The translations under genes were made by a program, and so were the position numbers. The notes below the pieces were generated by a model. It did not search any database and was not told where the DNA came from. It saw nothing but the letters and a program-made list of their open reading frames with translations. From an uncultured Bdellovibrionales bacterium (GTDB lineage: Bacteria > Bdellovibrionota > FAC87 > UBA2466): a stretch of 64,000 nt of DNA. Where the stretch lies: the NCBI GenBank assembly GCA_937903155.1, contig CALCZU010000132.1, forward strand, positions 18,043 to 82,042, given 5' to 3'. Below, piece after piece: positions 4,480 through 55,982 of this stretch. Each line of letters opens with the position of its first letter. The stretch's first letter is position 1.

Positions 4480-4573
4480 CCGTCATTGCGAGGGTGCGTA
4501 GCACCCGCGGCAACCTTCCCAGTTTCGGAACACAAAGGTTGCCGCGGCTGCTACACACCCTCGCAATGACAAG
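4480..4573. repeat. REP-like palindromic element: two inverted copies of the GTCATTGCGAG(G)GTGCGTAGCAC unit
   Basis: The left arm ccgtcattgcgagggtgcgtagcacccgcggcaacc and right arm ggttgccgcggctgctacacaccctcgcaatgacaag are near-perfect reverse complements. The same core recurs at 13432, 18501, 25034, 39446, 53837 and in weaker form at 7441 and 41491. Confidence 0.6.
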
Positions 4574-10721: not shown

Positions 10722-10803
10722 GAATACTTATATCAATTTTGAAGTCGGATGAGAGAAGTTGCAGAAAATCTTAAATCCGCTTATAAAGGGGTAGGAATTT
10801 CAA

Positions 10804-13388: not shown

Positions 13389-13431
13389 AGCTCTTCTCTT
13401 TCGGCATTCATTAGGAAAACCTTGAATCAGA

Positions 13432-22630: not shown

Positions 22631-22771
22631 GAAGAGACGTGCGGGTCCTGTCAGCTGCGTCCGATCCCACTGTCTCTTCGCGCGTTCAATCTGGTGCTGC
22701 GAAATGCAGTAGATTGAATAAGCGAAGAGACAGTGGGATCTAACGCAGCTCACAGGACCCGCACTCTTTTC
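22631..22771. repeat. Long nested inverted repeat (~50-bp arms, ~40-nt loop) between gltA 3' end and top6B 5' region
   Basis: The left arm GAAGAGACGTGCGGGTCCTGTCAGCTGCGTCCGATCCCACTGTCTCTTCGC matches the reverse complement of the right arm with 3 to 4 mismatches. Each arm is itself bounded by GAAGAGAC / GTCTCTTC. Confidence 0.6.
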
Positions 22772-37714: not shown

Positions 37715-38194
37715 ATGAAGCCGCACCCCACTTTATCTAAACCCTCCGATGCCCAGCTCGCAGAACTGATTCTGGACGTGGTCCCCGGACAAATGCGCCT
37801 GCTCCGAGCAAAAATGCGAGCAAATGCCGAAGGCGAATTCACTGTTCCCCAGCTCAGAGTCATGGCTCATGTCTATAAGGGGGCGGCGACGGCGAACGAA
37901 CTGGCAAGCCTTCAGGGAGTCAGCTTACCCGCGATTTCAAAACTCGTCGATACACTGGTCACAAAGCATCTACTTGTCCGCGAATATAAAGAAGGAAATC
38001 GCAAGCAGGTCTTTCTTTCGCTCAGTAAAAAAGGTGAGAAACGTTTTCTAGAGATCAGAAAGCGCACTGAAATCGAACTTGCAGAATCGTATGCCTCCCT
38101 TTCGTCAGAACAAAGAGGAAGCATTTGTGAAGGATTAAAAGCACTTAAAGATTTTGAGTCACAAACTTTTTCCAATCAAAAGCGGGGTAATTAA
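37715..38194 (+). CDS. MarR family transcriptional regulator
   Basis: 159 aa. The winged-helix block FTVPQLRVMAHVYKGAATANELASLQGVSLPAISKLVDTLVTKHLLVREYKEGNRKQVFLSLSKKGEKRF is a canonical MarR fold. Confidence 0.8.
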   Translation: MKPHPTLSKPSDAQLAELILDVVPGQMRLLRAKMRANAEGEFTVPQLRVMAHVYKGAATANELASLQGVSLPAISKLVDTLVTKHLLVREYKEGNRKQVFLSLSKKGEKRFLEIRKRTEIELAESYASLSSEQRGSICEGLKALKDFESQTFSNQKRGN

Positions 38195-38196
38195 AA

Positions 38197-38707
38197 ATGG
38201 TTCTTTCGGATCTTTCTATTCGTCGTCCCGTCTTTGCTTGGATGCTCATGCTGGGACTGATCGCTTTCGGCGGCTTATCCTTTCTCCGCCTAGGCGTGAG
38301 CCAGCTCCCCGACGTCGATTTTCCAGTGATTTCCGTTTCTGTCCATCTCGAAGGCGCACCGCCCGAAGTGATGGAGCAAGATGTAGTGGACGTTCTCGAA
38401 GATAAACTCATGAGTATTGAAGGCGTTCGGGCGGTGAGTTCTTCTTCCAAAAGTAGCTTTGCAACCATCAAAGTGGAATTCTATTTAAGTCGCAAAATCG
38501 ATATCGCACTTCAGGACGTTCAGGCCAAAACTGACGGGAGAATCACTTAACATCTACAGTATGATCGGTCTGATTCTTCTCATGGGTATTGCGAAGAAAA
38601 ATTCCATTCTTCTTGTCGACTTCACAAATCAAACTCGAGAGTCTGAAGGAAAAAACATCATCGATGCACTCTTGCATGCCTGCCTTATCCGGCTTCAGCC
38701 GATTTGA
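38197..38707 (+). pseudogene. Remnant of an RND (AcrB/HAE1-type) efflux transporter gene with a large internal deletion
   Basis: The first 117 codons encode a typical RND N-terminus (MVLSDLSIRRPVFAWMLMLGLIAFG...VISVSVHLEGAPPEVMEQDVV) and then hit a stop. From 38552, in a different frame, about 52 codons encode the extreme RND C-terminus (IYSMIGLILLMGIAKKNSILLVDFTNQTRESEGKNIIDALLHACLIRLQPI*). Roughly 900 codons in between are missing. Confidence 0.6.
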
Positions 38708-38814: not shown

Positions 38815-39438
38815 ATGGCATTGAAAACCGCTCCTAAAGCGCTCCTTTTAGACCTCGGAAATGTTATTTTCGAATTGGATTGGGAAAAACCGATTCAAAC
38901 TTTAGGTCTCAGAGGATCTCGGCTTGAAAAAATCCTGCTGCATCAAATCCAAGCGTGGGGTCCTTACGATCAATACGAACGAGGGAAACTCACGACCGAT
39001 GAGTTCTTGATTTTCCTAAATCAAAACTGTGATCATCCCATCAAACGCGCTGATTTTTTAGAAGCCTGGCAATCGTTGATAGCAGGCTATTTTATCGGAA
39101 TGGAAGAGCTGCTAGAAAAACTCTCGGACACTTTACCTTTGTACGCGCTCACCAACACTAACCCCGCACATTACGACTATATCCTTTCACTCAAAGGGAT
39201 GTCGCATTTTAGACAAATCTTTTCGAGCGTGACGACCGGCTTCCGCAAACCCGAAAATCAGATTTTTGAAACCGTATTAGAAACCTTAGAACTGCCGCCC
39301 GAAGAAATTTTATATATCGACGACACCGAAAGCCATGTGGAGGCCGCAAAAGCACTCGGCTTTCGCGCAGAAGTTTTCCGAGGCAGTAGCGCCACCGATC
39401 TCATCAGAGTTCTCTGGCGCCACCGAATCGAAGTTTAG
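38815..39438 (+). CDS. HAD-superfamily phosphatase (YihX-like, subfamily IA)
   Basis: 207 aa. The N-terminal ALLLDLGNVIFELDW mirrors E. coli YihX MLYIFDLGNVIVDIDF. Downstream LTNTN and the C-terminal YIDDTESHVEAAKALGF match HAD motifs III and IV. Confidence 0.7.
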   Translation: MALKTAPKALLLDLGNVIFELDWEKPIQTLGLRGSRLEKILLHQIQAWGPYDQYERGKLTTDEFLIFLNQNCDHPIKRADFLEAWQSLIAGYFIGMEELLEKLSDTLPLYALTNTNPAHYDYILSLKGMSHFRQIFSSVTTGFRKPENQIFETVLETLELPPEEILYIDDTESHVEAAKALGFRAEVFRGSSATDLIRVLWRHRIEV

Positions 39439-39445
39439 TATCGAG

Positions 39446-39546
39446 CAGTCATTGCGAGAAGCGAAGCGACGAAGCAATCTCGCTGATAACAAGAGCGCTC
39501 TTTCGCGTCGAGATTGCTTCGTCGCTTCGCTCCTCGCAATGACAGC
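39446..39546. repeat. REP-like palindromic element pair between convergent genes
   Basis: The left arm CAGTCATTGCGAGAAGCGAAGCGACGAAGCAATCTCG and right arm CGAGATTGCTTCGTCGCTTCGCTCCTCGCAATGACAGC are reverse complements. Confidence 0.6.
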
Positions 39547-39549
39547 GTT

Positions 39550-40761
39550 CTATGAAAGTTGGACGCCTTTGGCGATGGGGACGTGAAGGACTCTAACGAC
39601 TCCTAAGACTGCAGAGATGAAAAGAGTGATTAAACAAAGTGCGGTAATCGTAAGAATGTCATTTGGAAAATAACTCACGGTAATCTGGCTCCCGAGTGTC
39701 ATTCCAGGGGCGGGAGGCATCGCAATCCCGTTCGCAAGAAAAGTGCGTGAAACCATCACAACAAGAATGACGCCGCAGATCGCTGATCCCGCGCCTAAAA
39801 GGGACATTTCCGTAAATAAAAGGCGTAAAATATCGACTTTCTTCTCTCCATTCGCTCGGGCGACTGAAAATTCGTAGCATCTTTCGGCAACCGAAACCGT
39901 AACCGCATTAAAAATACCAAGAAGGATAATCACGAGAATGATCAACTCAAAAATCCGGCTCTGCCCCTTTAACCATCTCACCCCATTCACGTAGTTGATC
40001 TGGTCGAGCTCTTCAAAACTGAAAAACTCTACGTCATTTTTTTCCCACAACGAGGCTTTTAAATCTTCCCATTCCACGCCCGGCTTCAGGGCAACCGCAA
40101 CCGATTCTATCGCTTGGGTATCGAGGAGCACTTGTGCATCTTCTAACTCGACTTTGAAAGAAACATCATCGACGGCTTTGACGCCTGTCTCAAAAACCCC
40201 GACCAAAACAAAACTCATCATATTGACCGACCCATCCACGGTCGTCGTCAAAAAGCTCAGCGATTGGCCCAACTTCACGTTCAGTGCTTGGGCGAGCCCC
40301 TTACCAATAAAAATATTCCCTCGACTGCCATCGAGTGGGTGACCTTCAATGATTTTCAAGCGATCAAAGAAAGCGGCCTCTCGGACTCCTTTCACACCCA
40401 TTCCCAAGCCACTGAGAGAAACCGTTCCATTTCCGATCAGACCCGAGAGTCCCAGCCGCGGAAAAGAATCTTGAAGCAAACCCGATTGGGTGAGGTGGGG
40501 AAGAATCTCATCCGCATTTTTAAACCAACCCTTCCATGCATTTTCTTTCGTCTCGGTTCCATGATAGCCCTTCTTAAAGAGTGTTCCATGTCCGTAGCGG
40601 GAGTGAATCGACATTTCACGATAGTCCGAAAGAATTCCGTGATTAATCCCTCTAAAGAGTAAAAGTGCCGCCGCTCCAAAAGCAATCGTCGAAAAAATCA
40701 ATAAAGATCGCCTCGGGTTTCTGAGGAGATTTCTTAATCCGAATTTAAAAATTCTCGTCAC
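39550..40761 (-). CDS. ABC transporter permease, FtsX-like (MacB/LolCE family)
   Basis: 403 aa. N-terminal TM, a large periplasmic domain, three C-terminal TMs and the conserved FtsX-family block. It overlaps the upstream ATPase gene by 4 bp. Confidence 0.8.
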   Translation of the reverse strand: MTRIFKFGLRNLLRNPRRSLLIFSTIAFGAAALLLFRGINHGILSDYREMSIHSRYGHGTLFKKGYHGTETKENAWKGWFKNADEILPHLTQSGLLQDSFPRLGLSGLIGNGTVSLSGLGMGVKGVREAAFFDRLKIIEGHPLDGSRGNIFIGKGLAQALNVKLGQSLSFLTTTVDGSVNMMSFVLVGVFETGVKAVDDVSFKVELEDAQVLLDTQAIESVAVALKPGVEWEDLKASLWEKNDVEFFSFEELDQINYVNGVRWLKGQSRIFELIILVIILLGIFNAVTVSVAERCYEFSVARANGEKKVDILRLLFTEMSLLGAGSAICGVILVVMVSRTFLANGIAMPPAPGMTLGSQITVSYFPNDILTITALCLITLFISAVLGVVRVLHVPIAKGVQLS

Positions 40762-41441
40762 GTTCGGTCGATCTTTCCATCTCTTAATCGGATATTATCG
40801 TCGGCGCTTTCTAAAACCATTCCGTCATGACTTGCGACAATGGCACTCAATCCAAATTGCCGGCAGCCTTCTTTCAAAATCTGAATCACCTGTTTGCCAT
40901 TCGCCTGATCTAAACTCGCCGTCGGCTCATCCGCTAGAATTACCGAAGGTTTTTTCGCAAGCGCTCTCGCAATCGCGACTCTTTGCCTTTGTCCGCCGCT
41001 CATCTGATGCGGAAATTTTTTCTTCTGCCCTTCGATACCGACCATTTTCAAAGCTTCGTCCACGCGTTCTCGGCGTTTCAACTTACTCAGTCCCTGCCGA
41101 TGAAGGAAATACTCTACGTTTTCCTCGGCCGTTAACGTCGGAAAAAGATTAAAGCTCTGAAAAATAAAGCCTAAGTCAAAAAGACGGGCTTTCTCTTTCT
41201 CTTTTTCCGAAAGACGATTCACATCCTGTCCCTTAAAAAAAAGTTTTCCAGACTTCGGTTTGTCCAAAAGTCCAAAGAGATTCAAAAGCGTGCTCTTCCC
41301 CGAACCCGAAGGCCCTGAAAGACACACAAGCCTTCCGCTGGGAATTGAGGTTTCTATCGACTGCAAAGCCTCAATCGTTTCTTCCCCTAGACGATAGGAA
41401 TAACTCAATCCCTCAACGTGAAAAATACTATTTGTCTTCAT
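40758..41441 (-). CDS. ABC transporter ATP-binding protein (MacB/LolD-type)
   Basis: 227 aa. Walker A GPSGSGKST, signature LSGGQRQRVAIARAL and Walker B ILADEPTASLD. Confidence 0.9.
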   Translation of the reverse strand: MKTNSIFHVEGLSYSYRLGEETIEALQSIETSIPSGRLVCLSGPSGSGKSTLLNLFGLLDKPKSGKLFFKGQDVNRLSEKEKEKARLFDLGFIFQSFNLFPTLTAEENVEYFLHRQGLSKLKRRERVDEALKMVGIEGQKKKFPHQMSGGQRQRVAIARALAKKPSVILADEPTASLDQANGKQVIQILKEGCRQFGLSAIVASHDGMVLESADDNIRLRDGKIDRT

Positions 41442-42454
41442 ACTTCACTCACACAGTAGGCCTTGAAACTGTTTTTTACCGTTTCACGATCGCTTTTTGT
41501 CATTCCGAGGCACGGATCCCACTTCATCCCCACTCCTAAAGCTCCGTTATATTCGACGGCGCCGACACCCAGAGGTTGACCGGGATGGACGGGCGGAACG
41601 ACTGCCCAACCGACGAATCCTTTTTCTTCTTTTCCGCACCATCTCCCTAAGTTGCTGAAAGTTCCGACTCTTTTTTTCTTCGCTACCGTCGATGCGAGGA
41701 TTTTTCGATTCAAATTGTCCGAAAGAAAATCATTTAAGAGAACCGCTACAATCGTGCCCCAATAAGATTGCAGATCCACTTCTTTTTTGACCTTCGCATG
41801 GACGATTTCCGCCGTGTCATTATCCGCAAGATTAACTTCCATGATAGAGGTTTTAATACCCGGCGCTTTCGCTTCTTCAAAACTTTCGTAAAGTGAGACC
41901 GGAACAATCCACGTGCTATTATCTTTTTCTGACGGTTCTAGATAGGGTCTGACGGCACCATTCAAACTGTGAAGCAGGTGTGAGTTCACAGAAACTCCCC
42001 GTTTTTTTGCAGATTGACGCGTTTTTTGGGTTTCTTCTTCGCTTAAAAAAATCCAATCACACACGATTGTCGATTCACAACGCGGTTTTTCTTTCCACTC
42101 TCGGCTCTTTCGGGAGAACTGAACGAGCACGCGAAAAAACTGGATGATCCGCTTAAACCACTTCACTAAAAAACCGCTCTCATCGCGAGGGGGAACCGGC
42201 GGAAACGAGGTTTCCGTAATTTGGCCTTTGTCAGTGAGAAGTTTCACAAGTCCATTCATTCCATCGTAATCCGAATGGGGAATCTCAATCGTTTGAATTC
42301 CGGTTACATCCTTTGCAGCGTAGAGAATAGAAGTATCAAACCCCAACTCCGCAAAAAGATGAAAAGAGCGCTTAAAGGCATGGCCACCCGTAATCTGTTT
42401 TTTAACCACTCCATTACGAGACATCATAGATTCCTCTTTGTCCGGTTTTTTCAA
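41438..42454 (-). CDS. Hypothetical protein, possibly acyltransferase-like (weak WS/DGAT or condensation-type motifs)
   Basis: 338 aa. HSDYDG is a degenerate HHxxxDG. The C-terminal GTFSNLGRW resembles the WS/DGAT SNVPGP block. Speculative. Confidence 0.3.
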   Translation of the reverse strand: MKKPDKEESMMSRNGVVKKQITGGHAFKRSFHLFAELGFDTSILYAAKDVTGIQTIEIPHSDYDGMNGLVKLLTDKGQITETSFPPVPPRDESGFLVKWFKRIIQFFRVLVQFSRKSREWKEKPRCESTIVCDWIFLSEEETQKTRQSAKKRGVSVNSHLLHSLNGAVRPYLEPSEKDNSTWIVPVSLYESFEEAKAPGIKTSIMEVNLADNDTAEIVHAKVKKEVDLQSYWGTIVAVLLNDFLSDNLNRKILASTVAKKKRVGTFSNLGRWCGKEEKGFVGWAVVPPVHPGQPLGVGAVEYNGALGVGMKWDPCLGMTKSDRETVKNSFKAYCVSEV

Positions 42455-43304
42455 TAAAAGGTTGTTTCATTTGCGCCATCAAACGGTTTGAAACGGGGGA
42501 ATAATCATCCCTCGTTCCCACTTCTTTTACAAAATCGGTTTCCCGGTAATACCAGGTTCGAAAAAAGACGTCCCAAACACAGAGAACCTTGCCGTAATTT
42601 TTCTGATACTCCCCTGCTACCGTCGAATGGTGCCAGCGATGAAGTTCGGAAGTATTAAAAATTCGATTTGCGGTTCGAGAGGCATATTGAATATTCGCGT
42701 GTTCTAAAAGTCCTGTGACGATATTGATCGCAACGAAAAGACAGAGAATCTGTTCATTGGCTCCCATCAAATACACCGGAAAAAAATAGAGCGTCATCGT
42801 CAAAAAGAGATCGAAGGGATGAAAGCGAGCCGCATTTGCCCAATACACTCTATCGGCCCCGTGATGGATGCGGTGAAACCTCCACAAAAATCGATTTTCG
42901 TGCGCGAATCGATGAATGAGATAGAAAAAAAGCTCTGCAAATAAAAGAGTGACTAAGAACTTCAAGGCCAGGGACTGATTTAAAAGCTCAAACTGAAACG
43001 TCGGAATTGAAAACCCAGTAAAAAACCATCGATTTAACCAAGAGCTTAAAAGAACAATGACCGGAAAAAGAACAAAGGAGTGGATCAGATCGGCTAAAAA
43101 ATCCCCCTGATTGAGAAGCCAGTCTTTCCTCGCCGGATCTTTCTTTTCAAGCCAAATCATCGCGACAATCAGTGGAGAAGAAAAAAGGAGCGGGTAGACT
43201 TCTAAAAACTCGACGGGAACAAAACGCATTGTCAGAGCGATAAAAGTCATAAAGGCGGCAACGAGACTTAAATATCCCCAATGTGTATGTAATTTTTTAA
43301 ACAT
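42414..43304 (-). CDS. Sterol desaturase / fatty acid hydroxylase superfamily membrane protein
   Basis: Histidine boxes HRFAH, HRIHH and HRWHH sit in a polytopic membrane protein. The likely start is MFKKLHT at 43304. Confidence 0.75.
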   Translation of the reverse strand: MFKKLHTHWGYLSLVAAFMTFIALTMRFVPVEFLEVYPLLFSSPLIVAMIWLEKKDPARKDWLLNQGDFLADLIHSFVLFPVIVLLSSWLNRWFFTGFSIPTFQFELLNQSLALKFLVTLLFAELFFYLIHRFAHENRFLWRFHRIHHGADRVYWANAARFHPFDLFLTMTLYFFPVYLMGANEQILCLFVAINIVTGLLEHANIQYASRTANRIFNTSELHRWHHSTVAGEYQKNYGKVLCVWDVFFRTWYYRETDFVKEVGTRDDYSPVSNRLMAQMKQPFIEKTGQRGIYDVS

Positions 43305-44523
43305 GGCTGAGAAGCTCCACGAGAGTTTTTTTCTCCACCTGTCTAAGAGCGTAGAGCGTCGCGAGTAACGAGCAGGCAATCCCTAAGGCAGACCACTTCA
43401 CGGCACTTAGCGAACTCAGTCGAATTTGCGCGTAATAAAACCCTTCAAAACCTGGGGGCGGCGCCATCCAGACTCCTTTTGGGAAGAAAACCGCAAGAGC
43501 GCTGATCACAATGATCAGTCCGAGAGCAGCGCCCGCGCATCCGAGGATGAAAGCCTCGAGCAAAAAGATTTTCTTCACATTAATGCTCGTCTCGCCATTA
43601 GAGCGTAAGACTCCAATTTCTTTTGAGCGGTCTAAAACCCCGAGGGATGAGGTGTTAAAGACTCCTAAAAAGATGACGGAGGTGAAGATGACAAGAATGA
43701 GAAGAAACTGACTGTCGAGCCAGACTTTTGAAGTCTGATACATGACCTTATCCATTTCCTCGAATGAAAAAGCCTCGAGTTCAGGGAACCGAGGTAAAAC
43801 TTCAGAGTGAAATAAAGACCATTTGTCGGGATCTTTTAAACCGACCGAGAAAAATTCAACCTTCTCTGTTTCTAGTAACTGAAACGCTTGCTTCAGTTGT
43901 ACTCTAAAAAAACTATGATCCAGATCCGCATTCCCAGTGGAAACAATCCCTGCCACTTTACATTCGATTCCATTTAAATTTCCGCGCACCGTTTGTGAGA
44001 GCACGGTAATCGTATCGCCGACTTTTGCGTTGAGGGATTCTGCAACACCTATTGCGAGAATGATTCCATCTGGTTCATCTGTTAGATTTTTTCCGTAATG
44101 GATTTTAAGCGAATCAAAAAACGGAGCTTCTTTACCGCCATCGATCCCCTCTCCTCTTCCTGAAAAATTACTGCTACTCGCGCTTCCCTTTGAGAGTAGC
44201 GCTGTAAAACTCACGCGCGGATAAATGCCCGCAACGATCGGATTCTTTTCCATGTCAGAGACAATGTTTTGCCAATCCCCAATCCAGCCTTCAAAAGATT
44301 TCTCCTGAACGCTCTCGTAATACCCTTTACTAAATATTTTACCGTTTCCCACCTGCTGATGAATCACTTTATCGCGGTACTCACCCATCATCCCATCGTT
44401 AAACCCTTGGAATGCAAAAAGCCCTCCGACGCCCGCAGCGAGCGTAAAAAGGATTAAAAAAGAACGCATCGAGTGTCGGAGGCAATTTCGAAAAGCGAAA
44501 GGAAGAATCACTTTAAGATTCAC
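43297..44523 (-). CDS. ABC transporter permease, FtsX-like (second copy)
   Basis: 408 aa with the same architecture as 39550..40761. The N-terminus is MNLKVILPFAFRNCLRHSMRSFLILFTLAAGVGGLFA. Confidence 0.75.
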   Translation of the reverse strand: MNLKVILPFAFRNCLRHSMRSFLILFTLAAGVGGLFAFQGFNDGMMGEYRDKVIHQQVGNGKIFSKGYYESVQEKSFEGWIGDWQNIVSDMEKNPIVAGIYPRVSFTALLSKGSASSSNFSGRGEGIDGGKEAPFFDSLKIHYGKNLTDEPDGIILAIGVAESLNAKVGDTITVLSQTVRGNLNGIECKVAGIVSTGNADLDHSFFRVQLKQAFQLLETEKVEFFSVGLKDPDKWSLFHSEVLPRFPELEAFSFEEMDKVMYQTSKVWLDSQFLLILVIFTSVIFLGVFNTSSLGVLDRSKEIGVLRSNGETSINVKKIFLLEAFILGCAGAALGLIIVISALAVFFPKGVWMAPPPGFEGFYYAQIRLSSLSAVKWSALGIACSLLATLYALRQVEKKTLVELLSHV

Positions 44524-45503
44524 AAAAAATCCTTACGATATAAAACGTAACGGTGGTCCCAGAGATCGCGTGATTTCTTATTGTAGGAAGCACTGTGATT
44601 GCCACGGTGGATTAAAGCCGTCGTAAACTTATCAATTCCGTTTTCAGAAGCTTTCAATGCGGGCAAGTAACTCAAGGCTGTCGAGATCCCTTTTCCCCGG
44701 TAGACCTCATCCACGACTATTGTTTTTAAAACCAGATACTCTTTTTCAACAAAGATAAAGAAAAATCCAATCTCTTTTCCTTCGGGAGAGACGGCGAAAT
44801 AGCTGTAACTATAATCCTGTTTCGCTGCGAGCGCAGAATAGAGTTGCTTGAATAGCGGCAAAGAAATGGGTTCATAGAGTTTGTTGTTTTTAAAACCTTC
44901 AATGCTTAAGGAGTAAAGTTTCTCAACTTCTTTTTCCATGAAGTTCTCAGAATCAAACGGTCGGAACTGATAACCCTCTTGAACTAATTTCTCCCAAGTC
45001 GGTTTGATTTTTTGGGCGTATTCCTTAAGTCCTTCAGACCCAGGGCTATGGTAGTGCTCTGCCGCGACAAAACCCGCTTCTAAAAAGTACTGATTGTAGA
45101 TGACCGGATTTTTTGGCTCCCAACTGAATTGTAAAGGATCTGAGTCCTCGCGAAACCGGTAGGGAAACCAGGTATTAAAAGCCATCGGCCCATAGACAGT
45201 TTTTGCCCCACGCGCTTTCATCCACACACTTGCAGAATCAATCAGGCTTTGCGCAACTTCAGCACTCGACGCTTCGAAAAGTCCAAACGTTCCGGTGTCA
45301 GGATAATCCCGCATGAGCCCAGCACTCATCCGACCGACAGGTTCGTTGTTTTCAAGAGCAACAAAGAAACAAGCACTCGCAGAAGGCGGAAAAAGAAGTA
45401 GAAAATATTTCTTAATCGCTTCCGGTTCGCTGCCAATTTTTAAAAAGGCCGATTCAAATTCATTTGAAGGATTCTCATTCGAAAGAATTTTAATTTTCGA
45501 CAT
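44520..45503 (-). CDS. Hypothetical protein (possible GNAT-like fold)
   Basis: 327 aa with no clear motif. It is translationally coupled within the operon. Confidence 0.3.
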   Translation of the reverse strand: MSKIKILSNENPSNEFESAFLKIGSEPEAIKKYFLLLFPPSASACFFVALENNEPVGRMSAGLMRDYPDTGTFGLFEASSAEVAQSLIDSASVWMKARGAKTVYGPMAFNTWFPYRFREDSDPLQFSWEPKNPVIYNQYFLEAGFVAAEHYHSPGSEGLKEYAQKIKPTWEKLVQEGYQFRPFDSENFMEKEVEKLYSLSIEGFKNNKLYEPISLPLFKQLYSALAAKQDYSYSYFAVSPEGKEIGFFFIFVEKEYLVLKTIVVDEVYRGKGISTALSYLPALKASENGIDKFTTALIHRGNHSASYNKKSRDLWDHRYVLYRKDFL

Positions 45504-45505
45504 CC

Positions 45506-48226
45506 CTACCTCAAAATTCTGATTTCACCCTTACCTGCGTCTACCCGCACTCGATCACCCGTTTTTAAACGCGTCATTAAGCCACCATTGACACCCACAA
45601 TCGTCGGAAGACCGAGCTCTCTCGCAACGACCGCCGAATGGGACAAAAGACTTCCTCGTTCAATTAAGAGGCCGCTACACGAAGGATAAATCGGCACCCA
45701 TCCTGGATCGGTTCTTCCCGTCACTAAGATTTCGCCATCAATCCCTTGCGCATCTTTTGCGGAATGCACGACGCGAACAACGCCTTCGATAATTCCGGGA
45801 CAACAAGGAGTTCCCATCAAGACATCCGGATCATCACTGACTAAGAGATTCCTTAAGAGATCCCCTTCGGCCATTACAGAGGGAAAGCGAGCTGCGGCTC
45901 CCAGCGCACCCATCGTCACCATGCGATCGGGAGGGGCGACCGTTTTGTCGAATGTCGCATACTCCGCTTTTCGGATGGCTACGATTTGCTTCAATTCAAG
46001 AGACACGGCACGGCCCTCGATGAAAGCCACAATTTCTTCCACTGTGAGATAGAAAACATCCTGTCGAGTCTCCAAGAATCCAAGCTGGGTAAGTTTTTCT
46101 CCCATCGCTCTAAAAAGATGACGACTCACCCCAAAAATCTTCGTCCGCGCGAATCTTAAATTTTCGCGATTGCGAACGGCTCGACGGGCCTGCTTTAAAA
46201 TCCAACGGTAGACAATTTTTTTAACGCCCGAAAGCGCTTCGTCCGCCACTTTCTCGGCGGCAATGCGAATTTCTCTTTCGCGGGCTTCCATGTGCTCGAT
46301 TCGGTAAGACTGCGTTTTTACGTAACTCACCACCGATGAAATCACAAAAGTCGGATCATCGTGCAAATCCGGTTCTTCGAGTTTTAATTCGTTAATACAA
46401 CGGAATCCGTAACGGTCGAGGAAGTCTGCGAGGTCCTTCGCGAGGAAGGTTTCCTTGCCTTCGCCTTTAATAAAGCTCCAAAGCTCTTCTGGTGTACTTT
46501 CTAAAGCTTTTTTCTTTAGAATCACATCTTGATCGAGTCGAGCAGCAATTCTCATTAAACATTTTGTCGGCTCGGTGGAATCTAAATCTCCTTGCCCGCA
46601 GAGCAAGTCATTTTGAAGAGAATCTGCTTTCGATGAGTCCTTCACAACCCATTCGCTAGTGAGCTTCTTTAGCAATCCGAAAAAGACCATGCAAAGATAA
46701 TCGTTGATGATCGGTGCCTTCCATTGCTTGAGAAGTTCTTCGTCTAGATAAAAGAAATAATCCGAGAGCTCTTGCAACGACATTGCGTTGAAATTTTTCT
46801 TTCGAGCAACGTCGTAACATTTATTAAATCGATTCTGAAACTCCGCAATAATCGAATCAATTTTTAAAAACCGATTCAAAGTCCTAACGGAAAGAACAAT
46901 TTTTGAGAATAAGGAATACTTCGGTGGCTCTTTTACGAAATCAAAAATTTCTTTCAACTCAGGCCGGACCTGATCTTTCACTCCCATCATGGTTTCCATG
47001 AAGCCCTTGTTGCTCGAGGACCCCGGGAGCATCAGAACGAGCTGATACCAATTCACGAGATTGTAATAAATTCGTCCGCGAATTAGGGCGAGCATATTGC
47101 GAAAGACCTTAGCTTGTTTATCGACGAGCTCTTGAGGCACGCCCATCAGCTCGCAAAACTGAATATAAACTTGGTTATACGCCCGGCTTGCGAAACTAAA
47201 AGTCAGCGGAGACGTCACTCCACTATAGCTTTCAATGATATTCGAGTTATCCCAAAGAATCGGTTGTTTACCGACAATCGTCGGATCGTAAAAAGCATCG
47301 GGAGGAAGACTCGTAATCGGTCTCGTCTGAACCAAAAAGATTTCATTTCCTTCAAGACACCATTCGATATCTTGAGGCGATCCTAGGCTTTCTTCCAATC
47401 GACACGCAAGACCTGCGATTTTTAAAACTTGAGAGTCGGAAAGAGAGGATTTTCCCTGAAGGGTCGCTTCAAGTCCGACTTTTTCAATTCCACCTGAAGA
47501 AAGCTGAGACATCTTCTCTTTTTTATCCGCGATTTTCGAAATAATGTTTTGTGTCTCGCGGTGAGCTTCGAAATCATCCGAATCGAGTTCACCACTGACA
47601 AGCCCTTCTCCCAGTCCCCACACCGAGCTAATTAAAACATGATCTCTGTCTAAAACTTTAATGGGATGCCTCGAGAAGGCGACGCCCGCACTGGTCGCAT
47701 TCACCATCTTCTGAATCACAACCCCCACTCGGATATTGTGAAGAGTGATTCCTCTTTCCAAACGATAGCTCAAAGCTCGTTCTGAAAAACCCGAAGCCCA
47801 GCAGGCTTTAATCGATTCACAGATCTGATCAAATCCTTTCTGAAATAAAAACGAAGAGAATTGTCCCGCAAAAGAGTGCTCGCTTGAATCCTCATCGATT
47901 CCGCTTGAACGAACGGCAACGAACGGGGTCAGAAGTCCCGCTTTTTCGAGTTCACTTTTTAAAATTTCGCCTAACGAAGCTGAAAACGGAGCTGAAGTAA
48001 TCTTCGAATGGATTCGCTCGCTTTCGGCGAGTGGCTCGCCATCGACGACGAGCGCGGACTCCAAATTGTTTTCTTGAATAAATCGGTCGAAAACTTCTGC
48101 ACCGACACAAATCCAGGGCGGCACCGGAAAATTTTTCTGGGAAATTTTAGCGAGATTTGTTGCTTTACCGCCCCCGCGGTTTTGAAAGAACTCAATGGGA
48201 TCATTCGGAGATAGGATCAGATTCAT
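45506..48226 (-). CDS. PEP-utilising phosphotransferase with PPDK_N ATP-grasp domain and C-terminal phospho-His swivel domain (rifampin-phosphotransferase/PEP-synthase-like architecture, no TIM-barrel PEP domain)
   Basis: 906 aa. The N-terminus GGGKATNLAKI is the PPDK_N nucleotide-binding motif. The extreme C-terminus ERGSLLSHSAVVARELGLPTIVGVNGGLMTRLKTGDRVRVDAGKGEI is the PEP-utilisers mobile-domain motif with the catalytic His. Confidence 0.7.
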   Translation of the reverse strand: MNLILSPNDPIEFFQNRGGGKATNLAKISQKNFPVPPWICVGAEVFDRFIQENNLESALVVDGEPLAESERIHSKITSAPFSASLGEILKSELEKAGLLTPFVAVRSSGIDEDSSEHSFAGQFSSFLFQKGFDQICESIKACWASGFSERALSYRLERGITLHNIRVGVVIQKMVNATSAGVAFSRHPIKVLDRDHVLISSVWGLGEGLVSGELDSDDFEAHRETQNIISKIADKKEKMSQLSSGGIEKVGLEATLQGKSSLSDSQVLKIAGLACRLEESLGSPQDIEWCLEGNEIFLVQTRPITSLPPDAFYDPTIVGKQPILWDNSNIIESYSGVTSPLTFSFASRAYNQVYIQFCELMGVPQELVDKQAKVFRNMLALIRGRIYYNLVNWYQLVLMLPGSSSNKGFMETMMGVKDQVRPELKEIFDFVKEPPKYSLFSKIVLSVRTLNRFLKIDSIIAEFQNRFNKCYDVARKKNFNAMSLQELSDYFFYLDEELLKQWKAPIINDYLCMVFFGLLKKLTSEWVVKDSSKADSLQNDLLCGQGDLDSTEPTKCLMRIAARLDQDVILKKKALESTPEELWSFIKGEGKETFLAKDLADFLDRYGFRCINELKLEEPDLHDDPTFVISSVVSYVKTQSYRIEHMEAREREIRIAAEKVADEALSGVKKIVYRWILKQARRAVRNRENLRFARTKIFGVSRHLFRAMGEKLTQLGFLETRQDVFYLTVEEIVAFIEGRAVSLELKQIVAIRKAEYATFDKTVAPPDRMVTMGALGAAARFPSVMAEGDLLRNLLVSDDPDVLMGTPCCPGIIEGVVRVVHSAKDAQGIDGEILVTGRTDPGWVPIYPSCSGLLIERGSLLSHSAVVARELGLPTIVGVNGGLMTRLKTGDRVRVDAGKGEIRILR

Positions 48227-48238
48227 AAAGTTTTCCCT

Positions 48239-49087
48239 CTATAGTTTTCCAAACAGTTTTAATAAAAAAACCGACCAAATATGAATCACTAAGCTGAGAC
48301 TCGCCACAGCCTCTACCACTTTGTGAAGACGAAATCGAAGCAAAAGATAGGAGAGGGGAACGGCAATCGCAAATACTGCGGTCAGAGGATAAACCCCTAA
48401 ATAATAACCGCTTATGAGGGCTATCGTAGTAGTCACTAAAATGATCCCTAAACAGCCTTTGATTCCATACATCTGCCGGTAGGTTTTTAGAAGAACATGA
48501 GCATTCGGGTCGAGCTTACGAGACACTTCGTATGTGAAAAAAGAACCCAGCACGGTAAAGGCGTAGTACCAGGAATAAGATTTAGCGAGCGCTTGCGAAT
48601 CCGTCATAACGACGGGAAACAGACTGACCCAGACGAGAACTAACTGGTGGGTTGTCGCATACAAAATCTGGCGCGCCTCAAGCCACGGGCCTAAATAAAA
48701 CTCCACATACATCAGCCAAAGATGCACGGTGAGCCCCAAAAAGATAAGCCCGCTCACAGGTGAATGCGCGAAGAAAAGACAGCCAGCAAAAAGACCCATT
48801 CCCAAAACGACCAAAAGGATGACTTTCTTCACTTGTTCAACAGGGAGAAGCCCTCGAGGAAGCGGGCGGGTCGGATTTGCGATACAGTCTTTGTGGTAAT
48901 CCTTCACCTCATCCATCATTCTTAACATCGCGAAAAAAACCATAAGTCCCAGAAAAGAGAAGAGAAACTCTCTGGAAAGGAGAATGCCGCCGGCCAAAAG
49001 AGTTCCCGAGGCGCTAAATCCGCCCACCAAAATCGTATACACGACGAGAGGGAATCGCTCTTTTGTGTAGATCCACCAAGCCTTCAT
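48239..49087 (-). CDS. UbiA family aromatic/isoprenoid prenyltransferase (membrane)
   Basis: 282 aa. The first Asp-rich motif is RMMDEVKDYHKD (NDxxDxxxD type) followed by PTRPLPRGLL, in a 7 to 9 TM protein. Confidence 0.75.
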   Translation of the reverse strand: MKAWWIYTKERFPLVVYTILVGGFSASGTLLAGGILLSREFLFSFLGLMVFFAMLRMMDEVKDYHKDCIANPTRPLPRGLLPVEQVKKVILLVVLGMGLFAGCLFFAHSPVSGLIFLGLTVHLWLMYVEFYLGPWLEARQILYATTHQLVLVWVSLFPVVMTDSQALAKSYSWYYAFTVLGSFFTYEVSRKLDPNAHVLLKTYRQMYGIKGCLGIILVTTTIALISGYYLGVYPLTAVFAIAVPLSYLLLRFRLHKVVEAVASLSLVIHIWSVFLLKLFGKL

Positions 49088-49265: not shown

Positions 49266-49976
49266 ATGAAAAACCTCAGTTATTTTTTCGCATTGGCTCT
49301 TTTCATAGGGGCTTCAAGCTTTGCCATCACCCCTCCCGAAATCATCTCGAATGCCGATGCGATTCGAAATCCTTCGCAGAATTTTCACCTCAAAGTCGCC
49401 GTTACGAGCACGGACACCGATGACCAGTCTATTTTTGATGTTTCGATCCAGGGAAATACCCGAACGTTGATTCGGACGTTAAGTCCGGCCCGAGACAAGG
49501 GACGCAATATGCTGATGCTCGAAGAAGACATGTGGTCATACTTGCCCACTTTAAAAAGAGCGGTGCGAGTGAGCTTGAGCCAAAAACTCACCGGCCAAGC
49601 TGCGAATGGAGATATCAGCCGAATGAGGTGGGCCGAAGATTACGAAGCCACCCTCACCCAAGAAACACCCAAAGAGTGGGTTTTGCATTTAAAAGGAAAG
49701 AAGAAAGGTCTGACTTATGATCAGTTAGATGTTTGGGTTGAAAAAGATTCTTTTCGTCCTCTCAAAGCAAATTATCTAAGCGTTACCGGACAGACTTTAA
49801 AAGAAGCGAGTTATCTCGATTACAAACTGATGGCTGGCAAGCAACGACCTACCAAAATCGTGATTCAAGATGCGATTAAAAAATCTGCATCTTCGATTTT
49901 GACCATCCTCGAAATGGAATCACGCGATTTTCCACAATCCCTTTTCACTCAAGGAAATCTATCCCGCAGTGAATAG
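49266..49976 (+). CDS. Outer-membrane lipoprotein-sorting protein, LolA-like fold family
   Basis: 236 aa with a signal peptide. Composition and pattern are typical of small LolA-like (pfam17131-type) proteins. It overlaps the next gene by 8 bp. Confidence 0.5.
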   Translation: MKNLSYFFALALFIGASSFAITPPEIISNADAIRNPSQNFHLKVAVTSTDTDDQSIFDVSIQGNTRTLIRTLSPARDKGRNMLMLEEDMWSYLPTLKRAVRVSLSQKLTGQAANGDISRMRWAEDYEATLTQETPKEWVLHLKGKKKGLTYDQLDVWVEKDSFRPLKANYLSVTGQTLKEASYLDYKLMAGKQRPTKIVIQDAIKKSASSILTILEMESRDFPQSLFTQGNLSRSE

Positions 49977-51174
49977 ACTCGCCTTCACCCTTTTTATTTT
50001 GCTAAGTGCGTTTTATCGCTCTGCAAATGCTTACGAGTTTTCTAAAATCCAATGGACACCCGACTTTGAACTGGGACATCAGCTCGTCTACGGAGCAAAA
50101 GAAAACAAACTTTCGAAGAACTTAGGTTACACCGTTCTCTCGCTCAAGACGGACTTCCCCACCGAGTCGGCGACAGATCTCATCAACACGCGCATTTCTC
50201 TCAGGGGAGCACTGGACACCCAAGGGCCCGATGAAATTTCGATTCGTGCTTTTAACCTCAATTACGGAAACAACTGGCTGACCGTTACTGCAGGTTTTCA
50301 AGAAATAGCGTGGGGAGAAACTTTCGGGGTTTATATTTCCGATCTCGTCAATTCTAAGGACTTAAGAGATCCGTTCCTAAACGATTTGAGTTGGATTCGA
50401 ATTCCAACGGCGTCTTTACTCGCGCAAATCAATCTCGATAATTGGACACTCCAAGCCATCGTCACTCCGTTTCCGAAGAACAATCAATTCCCAGACGAAA
50501 TCAATCACCTTAAAATTGTTGAGCCTCCGGCGCTTCGACGAGACAATGTCTTTGAGCAAGCCGAGTGGGGCGCAAAGTTAGGACGTCTCTTTTCAACGGG
50601 CCTGGACGTGAATTTTTTCGCGCTCTACCATTGGAATCGAAACCCAGTGTTTGCACCTCAGCTTGTGGGAACGACGATTGGACTCATGCCCATTGTCCAG
50701 CAAACAAAATCGACAGGGCTGAGCTTTACTCAAGCGTGGGATAAAGTCGTTCTTCGAGGAGATTTCGTTTACCATTTACAAACACCGTTACAACCCGACT
50801 TCACCCAAAGACACCGAATCGGGAATTTTTTCCAAGCCATTCTGGGATCGGACCTCACGCTCGAGGAAAATTTGATCTTAGGGGCGCAATATCATGGGGA
50901 CTACGACGATGCTTCGAACCGGCATTGGTTGGGTTTGAGGGTCTCCAAACCCTTGCTTCGGCAAAAATTAACGCCAGAGCTTTTTGTTTTTCAAGGAATC
51001 AACAATAGCGACACCTGGATCCAACCCAAAATCCGATGGAATACTTCAGCAAATCTATCTCTTGATTTTGAATACTCTTGGATTCCCAATTTTCGAAGAA
51101 CGGCTCAGCCTGGATACTTTGGAACGTTTGAGAATTATCACCGGGTGTTTAGCTGGCTAAAATACAAATTTTAG
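49969..51174 (+). CDS. Putative outer-membrane beta-barrel protein
   Basis: 401 aa with a signal peptide. Alternating amphipathic beta-strand pattern and a C-terminal aromatic residue (...WLKYKF). Confidence 0.4.
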   Translation: MNRLAFTLFILLSAFYRSANAYEFSKIQWTPDFELGHQLVYGAKENKLSKNLGYTVLSLKTDFPTESATDLINTRISLRGALDTQGPDEISIRAFNLNYGNNWLTVTAGFQEIAWGETFGVYISDLVNSKDLRDPFLNDLSWIRIPTASLLAQINLDNWTLQAIVTPFPKNNQFPDEINHLKIVEPPALRRDNVFEQAEWGAKLGRLFSTGLDVNFFALYHWNRNPVFAPQLVGTTIGLMPIVQQTKSTGLSFTQAWDKVVLRGDFVYHLQTPLQPDFTQRHRIGNFFQAILGSDLTLEENLILGAQYHGDYDDASNRHWLGLRVSKPLLRQKLTPELFVFQGINNSDTWIQPKIRWNTSANLSLDFEYSWIPNFRRTAQPGYFGTFENYHRVFSWLKYKF

Positions 51175-52259
51175 ATCTTTTTCAGAAGTTCCACTTCGTA
51201 AACACCGACTTTTTCTTTCGAAATTAATTCGCGGTAGTTTTGAGTGATGTCGACGTAACCTGTTTTGTCACTGTTCTCAGGGATGTGGAGGTAATGTCGT
51301 AAGACGACCAATGCATTTTTTGAAAGATGCGGTAAGAGATCCGCAAGGTACTTCTTTTCTTTATTTCCCGTAAAATAAGACGGAACATCGGAGAGTGAAT
51401 AAAAATCAATCGGGGAATTCGCCGTTTGAGCGAGTTCAATCACATCTCCCTGCTGATATGAAACCTCACAGTTTTTTGCGCCTTCTTTTGCTGCAGCAAA
51501 AACATCGGGATGACATTCCACAGTACAGCCTTCGGGATAGGCAATTTCTCCCATAAAAAGAAGCTGCAAAAAGAAATTTTCGCGCGCTAACGTATTTTCA
51601 AAAAGATGGGCAAAGACTCGATTGTAAAACCCGACGTAACTCTCGGAGATATTCTTCTTGGTAAAATCGCCTTTATAGAGGAGCGCATTAAAAACCGAGG
51701 CATTTCCTAAGAGCGCGAGCACTAGTTTCCAACGCAAACGCGGAAAACGTTTTTTAAAGTACTCCTTTTGCTCTTTTAAATCTCGGCATTCAAAAATTTT
51801 TCTCCCCGCACGGCCTGTGATTTTGGAATTTACTTTGGAGAGATTTACAAAAAGATTTTCCCACTTACCGAGATACAATAAAGGCTTCCAGTAAATCGAT
51901 TCAAACATTCCCGAGAGATATTCGCGCGCAGGATTCGAGAGTGTCAGAGAATTAAAAATCTTTTTTCTCTCTTCGGCCGTCGCTTCTACTCCGGGATAAC
52001 CGAAAAGTTTTTTAAATTCATCGAGAGAAAGCGCTTTAACGCCTTCAATTCGCATTTCGGTCAGATAGAGCTGAAAAGGAGAAACATCGACGCAAGTGAG
52101 TTTCTTTGGCGCGCGAGAGAGGAGAGGCATGGCTCGCCCGCCACTTCCCGCAACGGTAAAAACATGGGAAGCATTTAGCGGGAGCAAGGCGACTTCTAAA
52201 GCCGTATCTTCATTAGCTAAAGTGTAGTTCAGTTTATTTTCAAAATATTGATTGCTCAC
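51171..52259 (-). CDS. DUF3419 / BtaA-like protein (SAM:diacylglycerol 3-amino-3-carboxypropyl transferase family)
   Basis: 362 aa. The N-terminus LNYTLANEDTALEVALLPLNASHVFTVAGSGGRAMPLL....LTCVDVSPFQLYLTEMR matches the BtaA/DUF3419 pattern (NY..cWED...L.....vl.itSgGcnaL..L....v.aVD.np.Q..L.eLK). Confidence 0.5.
   Translation of the reverse strand: MSNQYFENKLNYTLANEDTALEVALLPLNASHVFTVAGSGGRAMPLLSRAPKKLTCVDVSPFQLYLTEMRIEGVKALSLDEFKKLFGYPGVEATAEERKKIFNSLTLSNPAREYLSGMFESIYWKPLLYLGKWENLFVNLSKVNSKITGRAGRKIFECRDLKEQKEYFKKRFPRLRWKLVLALLGNASVFNALLYKGDFTKKNISESYVGFYNRVFAHLFENTLARENFFLQLLFMGEIAYPEGCTVECHPDVFAAAKEGAKNCEVSYQQGDVIELAQTANSPIDFYSLSDVPSYFTGNKEKKYLADLLPHLSKNALVVLRHYLHIPENSDKTGYVDITQNYRELISKEKVGVYEVELLKKI

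Positions 52260-53897: not shown

Positions 53898-55982
<2,085 letters not shown>

Follow-up and report, generated by a model that had tools for sequence, protein, structure and literature searches.

A UbiA-like transferase, a His-swivel phosphotransferase and a MacB-type exporter in a recurrent locus of an uncultured Bdellovibrionales bacterium: a candidate cassette for a hydrophobic amphiphile

BtaA is a DUF3419 protein (PMC6642084), and the same link is made in PMC10685587. In the synthesis of the betaine lipid diacylglyceryltrimethylhomoserine (DGTS), BtaA moves the 3-amino-3-carboxypropyl group of S-adenosylmethionine (SAM) onto a lipid hydroxyl. Rifampin phosphotransferase (RPH) and the PigC, RedH and TamQ enzymes combine an ATP-grasp domain, a substrate-binding middle domain and a C-terminal phospho-His swivel, while the DGGGP and chlorophyll synthases are O-prenylating enzymes. 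MacAB-TolC, DevBCA-HgdD and LolCDE-LolA-LolB are the described export systems in which ATP-binding cassette (ABC) ATPases, MacB-type FtsX permeases, LolA-fold periplasmic proteins and outer-membrane parts find their likeness. Here, we analyzed a 64,000-nucleotide stretch of DNA, referred to as the window, from an uncultured Bdellovibrionales bacterium (assembly GCA_937903155.1, contig CALCZU010000132.1, positions 18,043 to 82,042 of the forward strand), which carries genes that resemble parts of these systems. Eight minus-strand open reading frames (ORFs) run from position 49087 down to 39550, with the coordinates and strand given in a first-pass annotation of the same DNA. The eight-gene operon is part of a 20-kb locus, the core enzyme set of which recurs in at least six bacterial phyla. 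Each part comes from a known superfamily and none reaches the threshold of a characterized family. In agreement with the first-pass annotation, the gene combination was not found as a described pathway in the literature searched. The aryl-polyene, flexirubin, hopanoid and carotenoid loci that it had set aside are likewise excluded, with no ketosynthase/acyl carrier protein, squalene or phytoene genes in the window locus.

The UbiA-like family alignment was scanned against 185,579 species genomes, one genome per species, and 128 matches were confirmed. Eighty of these 128 loci were fetched with 10-kb flanks, the window proteins were mapped onto them and all ORFs were clustered, and the presence of each family was counted among the 53 loci of at least 14 kb. 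The carriers belong to the Bdellovibrionota, Caldilineaceae (Chloroflexota), Chlamydiota, Gemmatimonadales, Polyangiaceae and Planctomycetia, with a few unclassified metagenome-assembled genomes (MAGs), and include the cultured Bdellovibrio sp. HCB-162 and HCB-110 and Oligoflexus tunisiensis Shr3. The loci share a co-directional array of genes for an AMP-binding enzyme, the UbiA-like protein, a PPDK-like phosphotransferase and a tandem GNAT protein, usually accompanied by a BtaA-like DUF3419 protein. Among the long loci, the AMP-binding gene is present in 51 of 53 and normally overlaps the start of the UbiA-like gene; the PPDK-like gene is found in 48, the tandem GNAT gene in 46, and the DUF3419 gene in 38, including Caldilineaceae and Chlamydiota loci. 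The other families occur less often: a 687-aa reductase (AAR/PigE-N-like) in 16, an NAD_binding_4 reductase in 15, a DAGK-type lipid kinase in 14, an FtsX permease in 13, an ABC ATPase of at least 40% identity in 12, a LolA-like carrier in 12, and a DUF1302-like barrel in eight. The median distance in the related loci is -16 nt from the AMP-binding stop to the UbiA-like start and +3 nt from the UbiA-like to the PPDK-like gene, and the catalytic motifs are conserved across the cassette families. All twelve families form a single co-directional array in three loci (L004, L005 and L006). A bulk Pfam scan of 108 other neighboring ORFs revealed no recurrent family; polyprenyl synthases, glycosyltransferases, polyketide synthases (PKS) and carrier proteins did not recur, and no ketosynthase/acyl carrier protein, squalene or phytoene genes were among the commonest families. 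Dozens of genomes spread over several phyla have the same genes as neighbors, an arrangement that chance is far from explaining. The first-pass annotation had read one pathway from the coupling of the eight genes; in the neighborhood analysis, the linkage of the UbiA-like, PPDK-like and GNAT genes to the ABC/FtsX exporter survives rearrangement, which supports the assignment of the eight genes to one biosynthesis-plus-export system.

The window itself holds all twelve families, split into five predicted transcription units across 39550-60006. The AMP-binding gene lies 3.3 kb away from the UbiA-like gene on the opposite strand, and the kinase-reductase operon at 53898-60006 belongs to the same locus as the eight-gene operon. 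The eight genes had been taken as the functional unit; this proved too narrow, with the core also including the AMP-binding gene (52362-53780) and the DUF3419 gene (51171-52259). All junctions of the eight-gene operon are overlaps or gaps of at most 12 nt, as the description of overlapping or abutting genes implied, and the tighter limit of 4 bp or less fails at three of them. The gap is 12 nt between the UbiA-like and PPDK-like genes and 2 nt between the PPDK-like and tandem GNAT genes, and 4-nt overlaps join GNAT to the first FtsX gene, the 338-aa gene to the ABC gene, and the ABC gene to the second FtsX gene. The first FtsX gene and the hydroxylase gene overlap by 8 nt with ATG 43304 as the hydroxylase start, or by 83 nt with TTG 43379 of the longest ORF. 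The hydroxylase and 338-aa genes overlap by 11 nt with ATG 42424, the start of the 328-aa public protein P0113.

In other genomes, the AMP-binding and UbiA-like proteins are joined in one chain. Fusions of approximately 750 aa with the UbiA-like part at the C-terminus account for at least 12 of the best 150 representative proteins (P0128, P0154, P0161, P0171, P0205, P0217, P0234, P0238, P0240, P0241, P0247 and P0249), and the N-terminal part of P0128 is 46% identical to the window AMP-binding protein (E=1e-139). Two Oligoflexia loci show in-frame read-through from one gene into the other (L016:8585-10846 and L058:8600-10858). The fusions indicate that the adenylating enzyme and the membrane transferase act together. 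No earlier description of such a fusion was found in the literature searched.

The first core gene of the operon (48239-49087, minus strand) encodes a 282-aa membrane transferase that, from family profile, motif and homologue Pfam matches, belongs to the UbiA superfamily. The protein itself has no Pfam match at E<=0.01, and many of its homologues carry PF01040. It shows an all-alpha polytopic membrane fold of 8-9 helices, as in the UbiA superfamily. Structure prediction used a shallow alignment of 13 database homologues. In the family alignment, the first Asp-rich motif, D59-E60-x-x-D63-x-x-x-D67, is invariant or near-invariant and is followed by RPLPRG; it was found by regular expression in 59 of 63 homologues and aligns with NDIFDIEID of DGGGPS. 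The second Asp-rich region, Y186-E187-x-x-R190-K191-L-D193, has acidic residues with a spacing that differs from the canonical DxxxD. The best solved match of the family profile is archaeal DGGGP synthase, followed by chlorophyll synthase. Compared with these two enzymes, the window protein is only 13-15% identical, reaches no equivalog threshold, has a non-canonical second motif and keeps other genomic partners. It falls below every NCBIfam equivalog cut-off for MenA, UbiA/COQ2, CtaB, ChlG and DGGGPS, the top scores being 38.8 bits versus 443 for PRK13592, 21 versus 269 for PRK12884, and 18.6 versus 313 for ChlG. The protein thus stays outside the housekeeping MenA, UbiA and CtaB groups, membership of which would have made the neighboring genes coincidental in the first-pass annotation. 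By analogy, the enzyme probably moves a prenyl, possibly an alkyl, chain from a diphosphate donor onto an oxygen nucleophile, the acceptor being suggested by the O-prenylating chemistry of its nearest relatives, the DGGGP and chlorophyll synthases.

The family is rare, since only 437 of 1.84 billion representative proteins reach E<=1e-30 in a HMMER search with the UbiA-like profile. Three members are labeled as or appear fungal (P0087, labeled Podila humilis, P0225 and P0229), the last two with a C-terminal insertion and a long N-terminus of low complexity; these sequences could stem from horizontal transfer or from the DNA of endosymbionts. Two Chlamydiota loci (L046 and L050) encode distant UbiA-like homologues of 35-36% identity, lacking the remaining cassette and coming after two tandem ABC-type proteins of approximately 600 aa each, and may represent a sister subfamily with another context.

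The second core gene (45506-48226, minus strand) encodes a 906-aa, three-domain phosphotransferase predicted from Pfam, NCBIfam and PDB matches to be ATP-dependent, with a PPDK_N ATP-grasp domain, a middle domain of approximately 500 aa and a C-terminal phospho-His swivel. Its earlier annotation as a PPDK_N plus phospho-His-swivel enzyme agrees with PF01326 (246.7 bits) and PF00391 (68.4 bits). The swivel His domain spans residues 830-900 of 906 and contains the phospho-His motif GSLLSHSAVVAR, of which SHSAVVAR is kept in 61 of 62 homologues. The best PDB match is Listeria rifampin phosphotransferase (5fbs), and the protein aligns over its full length, in a single stretch, with the NCBIfam models of PigC and RedH. 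Like RPH, PigC, RedH and TamQ, it has the ATP-grasp domain, the middle domain, the C-terminal swivel and the kept His motif. However, it remains far under the equivalog cut-offs (338 bits versus 999 and 243 versus 1700 for RPH, 340 versus 1300 for PigC, and 347 versus 1350 for RedH), no rifamycin, pyrrole or bipyrrole genes are present, and enzymes of the window type are always paired with the UbiA-like membrane protein. The protein narrowly passes NF004881, named 'phosphoenolpyruvate synthase' in NCBIfam (887.8 bits versus a cut-off of 883). This name is a homology-derived label. Pfam found no PEP-utilizers_C domain (PF02896, the phosphoenolpyruvate (PEP)/pyruvate-binding TIM-barrel) in the 906-aa protein, and a gluconeogenic PEP synthase was ruled out on the absence of this PEP-binding domain and the C-terminal position of the His domain, as in RPH and PigC. 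In one Chlamydiota MAG (L074), the PPDK-like gene lies in two ORFs, 10660-12555 (631 aa) and 12335-13393 (352 aa, with the swivel domain), which could reflect a frameshift, a pseudogene or a genuine split gene.

The third core protein of the operon (327 aa, 44520-45503, minus strand), previously listed as an unknown, was identified from its fold as a tandem-repeat GNAT N-acyltransferase. It has two GNAT folds per chain with the acyl-CoA site in the C-terminal repeat, and its structural neighbors include the Eis aminoglycoside acetyltransferases. The core adenylate-forming (ANL, AMP-binding) enzyme at 52362-53780 (plus strand) is assigned by its Pfam AMP-binding match; it stands alone in the window, detached from the UbiA-like gene, and carries the motifs TGTTGKPKG, YGSSEAEP and GDR..GR. 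Between the operon and this gene lies the near-core DUF3419 gene (51171-52259, minus strand), the product of which matches PF11899 with 130.7 bits over positions 3-350 of 385. It belongs to the family of BtaA, and its Pfam E-value of 1e-37 is moderate compared with the 2e-106 reported for BtaA itself. The window locus encodes no BtaB-type N-methyltransferase, and methyltransferases were present in only two of the 108 other neighbors of the related loci. In contrast to DGTS loci, the DUF3419 gene is linked to the tandem GNAT, the adenylating enzyme, the UbiA-like protein and the His-swivel phosphotransferase instead of BtaB, from which we infer a head group that would be N-acetylated rather than trimethylated.

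The export part of the operon consists of two FtsX/MacB-type permeases of 408 aa (43297-44523, minus strand) and 403 aa (39550-40761, minus strand), both with Pfam FtsX and MacB_PCD domains, and a 227-aa DevA/MacB/LolD-like ABC ATPase (40758-41441, minus strand; Pfam ABC_tran; TIGR02982 DevA, 196 bits); Pfam agrees with the first-pass annotation on all three. A homologue of the second permease gene lies upstream of the UbiA-like gene in L001 and L084. Divergently from the operon, two plus-strand genes encode a periplasmic LolA-like carrier with a signal peptide (49266-49976; PF17131, 143.8 bits) and a DUF1302-like outer-membrane beta-barrel (49969-51174; Pfam and translation), which has a signal peptide and the C-terminal sequence ...YKF, ending in an aromatic residue. 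With these two genes adjoining the operon, the outer-membrane destination proposed earlier is plausible. The ABC ATPase, FtsX, LolA-like and DUF1302-like genes stand beside the core, in rearranged orders, only in diderm lineages, and the exporter families are absent from the Caldilineaceae loci. The system shares its ATPase, permeases, LolA-fold protein and outer-membrane part with MacAB-TolC, DevBCA-HgdD and LolCDE-LolA-LolB, with several differences. Unlike MacAB-TolC and DevBCA-HgdD, the window exporter comes without a MacA/DevB adaptor or TolC, as no membrane-fusion adaptor (MacA/DevB) and no TolC-type duct were found in the stretch from 33 to 63 kb of the window. The Lol equivalogs are not reached either (NCBIfam lolCE 88 and 55 bits versus 362; LolD 182 versus 308), and a true LolCDE lipoprotein-release system was ruled out by these sub-cut-off scores. 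Unlike the known MacB, Dev and Lol exporters, the transporter block has a 328-aa cytoplasmic HxxxDG protein embedded in it. The block has a DUF1302-like barrel for its partner in the outer membrane, as does the resistance-nodulation-division (RND)-linked AmeABCD hydrophobic-compound system (PMC6394551).

The embedded protein (41438-42424, minus strand; 338-aa ORF) has no assigned family and is associated with the transporter block by its context. Its description as acyltransferase-like is unproven, the support being a motif that resembles that of HHxxxDG acyltransferases and a 17-bit WS/DGAT match. The motif H50-x-x-Y53-D54-G55 is invariant in all eight homologues, the only ones found in a large protein collection; the score against the WS/DGAT model TIGR02946 is a weak 17.3 bits versus a cut-off of 310, and Pfam and PDB profile searches gave no match. 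In a relative of approximately 50-63% identity (L084), the order is FtsX1, hydroxylase, 338-aa gene, ABC, FtsX2, UbiA-like and PPDK-like, so that the blocks are permuted relative to the window and the linkage of biosynthesis and exporter is retained. In L081, the order is FtsX1, 338-aa gene, ABC, FtsX2 and LolA-like, followed by a 358-aa protein, with no hydroxylase and no biosynthetic core within 10 kb. The 338-aa gene thus lies between FtsX1 and the ABC ATPase in every context found, and the L084 and L081 contexts place its product in the transporter block. The hydroxylase gene (42414-43304, minus strand, likely start ATG 43304) encodes a di-iron enzyme of the fatty-acid-hydroxylase superfamily (PF04116, 94.7 bits), and the three His boxes that supported the original assignment are HRFAH, HRIHH and HRWHH. 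The top NCBIfam match of the 321-aa hydroxylase, an FA_hydroxylase-family di-iron enzyme, is OlsE, but the score is 152 bits versus a cut-off of 475, OlsB, OlsA and OlsF are lacking, and the gene occurs only in close relatives of the window. An ornithine-lipid locus was rejected on the distance of this match and the absence of OlsB, OlsA and OlsF. The kinase-reductase operon ends in a gene found in this window only, which encodes a 691-aa old yellow enzyme (OYE)/FadH-type flavoenzyme (53898-55973, minus strand; Pfam Oxidored_FMN and Pyr_redox_2). None of the 80 related loci has a counterpart of the hydroxylase, the 338-aa gene or the OYE-type flavoenzyme. The hydroxylase gene was added recently and only in this clade. 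It and the 338-aa gene had been treated as core steps, but both are lineage-specific additions nested in the transporter block. The series of prenylation, phosphorylation, oxygenation and acylation read from the eight genes therefore mixes core reactions with late clade-specific tailoring steps.

The other genes of the kinase-reductase operon, all on the minus strand, encode a 687-aa protein (55983-58046) with an N-terminal part of 315 aa and a C-terminal acyl-thioester reductase domain (AAR/PigE-N-like; PigE 143 bits, AAR 59 bits; PDB matches 4ppm and 6jzq), a 334-aa NAD_binding_4/short-chain reductase (58043-59047; Pfam 102.5 bits), and a 320-aa DAGK_cat/YegS-family lipid kinase (59044-60006; Pfam DAGK_cat and YegS_C; NCBIfam lipid kinase, 95.5 bits). 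The N-terminal 315 aa of the 687-aa protein gave nothing usable in searches of Pfam, NCBIfam and PDB. Outside Bdellovibrionota, none of the related loci has the lipid kinase or either reductase. An HD-GYP/HD_5-domain protein, a possible cyclic di-GMP phosphodiesterase, is encoded on the same strand 137 nt upstream of the lipid-kinase operon (60143-61273, minus strand) and is not conserved in related loci.

Comparison of the related loci revealed further lineage variants. In Chlamydiota, a polytopic membrane domain of approximately 230 aa precedes the tandem GNAT in one fused protein (L074:15688-17364 and L076:14137-15429, both minus strand). The same domain stands alone beside the core in a gammaproteobacterial MAG (L048:10900-12543, minus strand), and a tblastn match lies beside the core in a Planctomycetia MAG (L008, approximately 15441-16034, minus strand). 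Its motifs RKxxHLxSG, DxxAAxxG...KSxEGS and EA...G.DN..P resemble those of polyprenol/phytol kinases; Pfam, NCBIfam and PDB gave no match, and we treat the likeness as a lead rather than a finding. In Bdellovibrio sp. HCB-162 and HCB-110 (L052 and L053), the order is AMP-binding, GNAT, cytochrome P450, major facilitator superfamily (MFS) transporter, UbiA-like and PPDK-like, with an oxygenase and an exporter from other families than those of the window. Four Bdellovibrionota loci (L013:14531-16129, L015, L020 and L027) have a gene for a secreted AlkP-type phosphodiesterase/nucleotide pyrophosphatase (PF01663) after the GNAT gene, a hint that an intermediate with a phosphate or diphosphate link is processed outside the cytoplasm.

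Several features flank the locus. At the 3' end of the eight-gene operon, before a convergent HAD-hydrolase gene, lies a long imperfect hairpin with 55-nt arms (39428-39563). This palindromic element and another at 4482-4570 have the common termini GTCATTGCGAG...CTCGCAATGAC and may belong to a family of repeats resembling repetitive extragenic palindromes or miniature inverted-repeat transposable elements. A large intergenic inverted repeat is found at 22639-22764, with 59-nt arms that are 86% complementary and 8 nt apart. Directly after a MarR-family regulator gene (37715-38194), a 117-aa ORF at 38197-38550 (plus strand) covers just positions 2-109 of a 1021-position AcrB/RND pump model and looks like a truncated efflux-pump remnant. 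An Rfam scan of the window found one tRNA only and no riboswitch.

On balance, we lean toward the view that the locus serves to make a hydrophobic amphiphile, prenylated or alkylated, and encodes a dedicated exporter for it. The specific head-group and donor chemistry is far more tentative and is unlikely to be right as drawn; our best guess for the product is a prenyl or alkyl ether or ester amphiphile with an N-acetylated, SAM-derived homoserine-type head group. From family knowledge, we infer the following chemical steps. The UbiA-like enzyme, working on the cytoplasmic side of the inner membrane, would use a lipid diphosphate donor to alkylate or prenylate an oxygen nucleophile, giving an ether or ester. 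The His-swivel enzyme would place a phosphate from ATP on a hydroxyl, phosphate or carbonyl oxygen, either converting a lipid monophosphate into the diphosphate donor or activating an intermediate as in PigC. The BtaA-like enzyme would then move the 3-amino-3-carboxypropyl group of SAM to a lipid hydroxyl, and this transfer fits the cassette because it would install both an amine for the GNAT and a carboxylate for the adenylating enzyme. The tandem GNAT may N-acetylate or N-acylate this amine, and the adenylating enzyme, translationally coupled or fused to the UbiA-like protein, may activate the carboxylate. The lipid kinase and the two reductases would provide a reduce-and-phosphorylate branch in Bdellovibrionota. 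In the clade of the window, the di-iron hydroxylase and the HxxxDG protein would carry out late tailoring, to which the OYE enzyme may also contribute. Finally, the ABC/FtsX (MacB-type) pump would extract the amphiphile from the inner membrane and pass it to the LolA-like protein and on to the DUF1302-like barrel, where it would be inserted or released. Taken to its full extent, the proposal would make the five-gene cassette the signature of an unrecognized class of bacterial membrane lipid, with DGGGPS-like chain transfer, a diphosphate donor made by the His-swivel enzyme, an N-acetyl-homoserine-type head and an adenylating enzyme docked on or fused to the transferase, common to Bdellovibrionota, environmental Chlamydiota, Caldilineaceae, Gemmatimonadales and others, and with Lol-like delivery to the outer membrane in diderms; we regard this full version as improbable.

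A number of observations weigh against the amphiphile cassette. The cassette has no linked gene for a BtaB-like methyltransferase, a carrier protein or a polyprenyl synthase. The DUF3419 gene is missing from approximately 28% of the long loci and the kinase and reductases are confined to Bdellovibrionota, so the pathway may differ between lineages. The fusion of AMP-binding and UbiA-like proteins poorly fits an adenylating enzyme that merely feeds distant reductases. Scans for consensus promoters and terminators gave counts at chance (11 versus 14.6 expected and 22 versus 20.4 expected) and are uninformative either way. In addition, a distribution this patchy and tailoring and export genes this variable (P450 with MFS in Bdellovibrio sp. 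HCB-162, AlkP-type phosphodiesterase in four loci) would suit a specialized-metabolite cluster as well as a membrane-lipid pathway.

Such a cluster is the main rival, and one that overlaps the amphiphile explanation rather than excluding it. The product would be a small diffusible molecule, prenylated and N-acylated, and not a structural lipid of the envelope; it could be a signal or an antibiotic that benefits bacteria living as predators or with a host; the PigC-like enzyme would be an ATP-dependent condensing enzyme and the ABC/FtsX proteins would provide self-protection by efflux. Besides the rarity and patchiness of the family (128 matches in the species genomes and 437 proteins in the representative set) and the lineage-by-lineage exchange of tailoring and export genes (P450 with MFS, AlkP-type phosphodiesterase, hydroxylase), the full-length alignment of the PPDK-like protein with PigC and RedH at approximately 340 bits speaks for it, and the pairing of an AMP-binding enzyme with a PigE-N-like reductase is reminiscent of the alkylamine branch of tambjamine synthesis. 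However, the locus has no pyrrole, PKS or nonribosomal peptide synthetase genes, the BtaA-like and DAGK-type genes indicate lipid substrates, and the LolA-like carrier and barrel suggest a very hydrophobic cargo bound for the outer membrane rather than plain efflux. We consider a specialized metabolite possible, though rather unlikely. A second lipid explanation has ether lipids made by a salvage-type route through alkyl or prenyl diphosphates, in which a lipid kinase would phosphorylate a lipid alcohol, the His-swivel enzyme would turn the monophosphate into the diphosphate and the DGGGPS-like protein would form the ether bond, the alcohol coming from a fatty acid through the adenylating enzyme and two reductases or being an isoprenoid alcohol. 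Such a route would be a bacterial analogue of the phytol kinase and phytyl-phosphate kinase that feed the chlorophyll and tocopherol prenyltransferases, and the locus resembles phytol salvage (VTE5, VTE6) in encoding lipid-alcohol kinases with a UbiA-type transferase. The Bdellovibrionota array indeed holds the AMP-binding enzyme, the AAR-like and NAD_binding_4 reductases, the DAGK-type kinase, the His-swivel enzyme and the UbiA-like protein, and DGGGP synthase is the nearest solved relative by sequence profile. In Chlamydiota, a gammaproteobacterial MAG and a Planctomycetia MAG, the core also has beside it, or fused to the GNAT, the unrelated polytopic membrane domain with motifs like those of polyprenol kinases. 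Yet the locus kinases come from families unrelated to VTE5 and VTE6 (DAGK_cat and His-swivel) with no profile match behind the analogy, and for the polyprenol-kinase likeness of the membrane domain Pfam, NCBIfam and PDB gave nothing. The reductases and kinase are absent outside Bdellovibrionota, whereas the AMP-binding enzyme is universal and fused to the UbiA-like protein, which argues for a direct partnership of the two and not for the first and last steps of a route. Moreover, saturated alkyl diphosphates are poor electrophiles in UbiA-type chemistry, and the GNAT and DUF3419 proteins would be left without a role. We regard the salvage route as quite improbable.

Two further explanations involve resistance or housekeeping functions. 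The first is a xenobiotic-resistance cassette with a rifamycin-type phosphotransferase, an Eis-like GNAT and MacB-type efflux, the other genes being bystanders, and it can draw on rifampin phosphotransferase as the best solved relative of the 906-aa protein, on the Eis enzymes among the structural neighbors of the tandem GNAT and on the MacB-like pump. The RPH equivalog scores given above are far too low for this assignment, the exporter is missing from most loci, and the fixed position of the phosphotransferase and GNAT beside the UbiA-like, adenylating and BtaA-like genes across phyla would go unexplained, which leaves it very improbable. The second, scarcely credible to us, has a quinone or haem prenyltransferase, a gluconeogenic PEP synthase and a Lol lipoprotein system as housekeeping neighbors by chance. 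The passed 'phosphoenolpyruvate synthase' model (887.8 versus 883) and weak matches of the FtsX proteins to LolC/E models point that way. Against it, PEP-utilizers_C is lacking and the His domain is C-terminal as in RPH and PigC, the UbiA-like protein falls short of every MenA, UbiA, CtaB, ChlG and DGGGPS equivalog, the LolCE model gives 88 bits versus 362, and the UbiA-like family is rare with its synteny kept across phyla.

If the amphiphile cassette does make a new envelope lipid, it would add a lipid class and two unusual pairings, that of a His-swivel enzyme with a UbiA-like protein and that of an adenylating enzyme fused to a UbiA-like protein. It would also provide the first function for the NCBI 'phosphoenolpyruvate synthase' subfamily without a PEP-binding domain and show BtaA-type chemistry at work outside betaine lipids. 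The transporter block, which comprises two FtsX permeases, the ATPase, the embedded HxxxDG protein, the LolA-like carrier and the DUF1302-like barrel, is a compact model for a MacB-type pump passing a lipid over the periplasm without an adaptor protein. The cultured carriers make the question directly testable. The carriers include predators and intracellular symbionts, for which surfaces matter in contact with prey and host.

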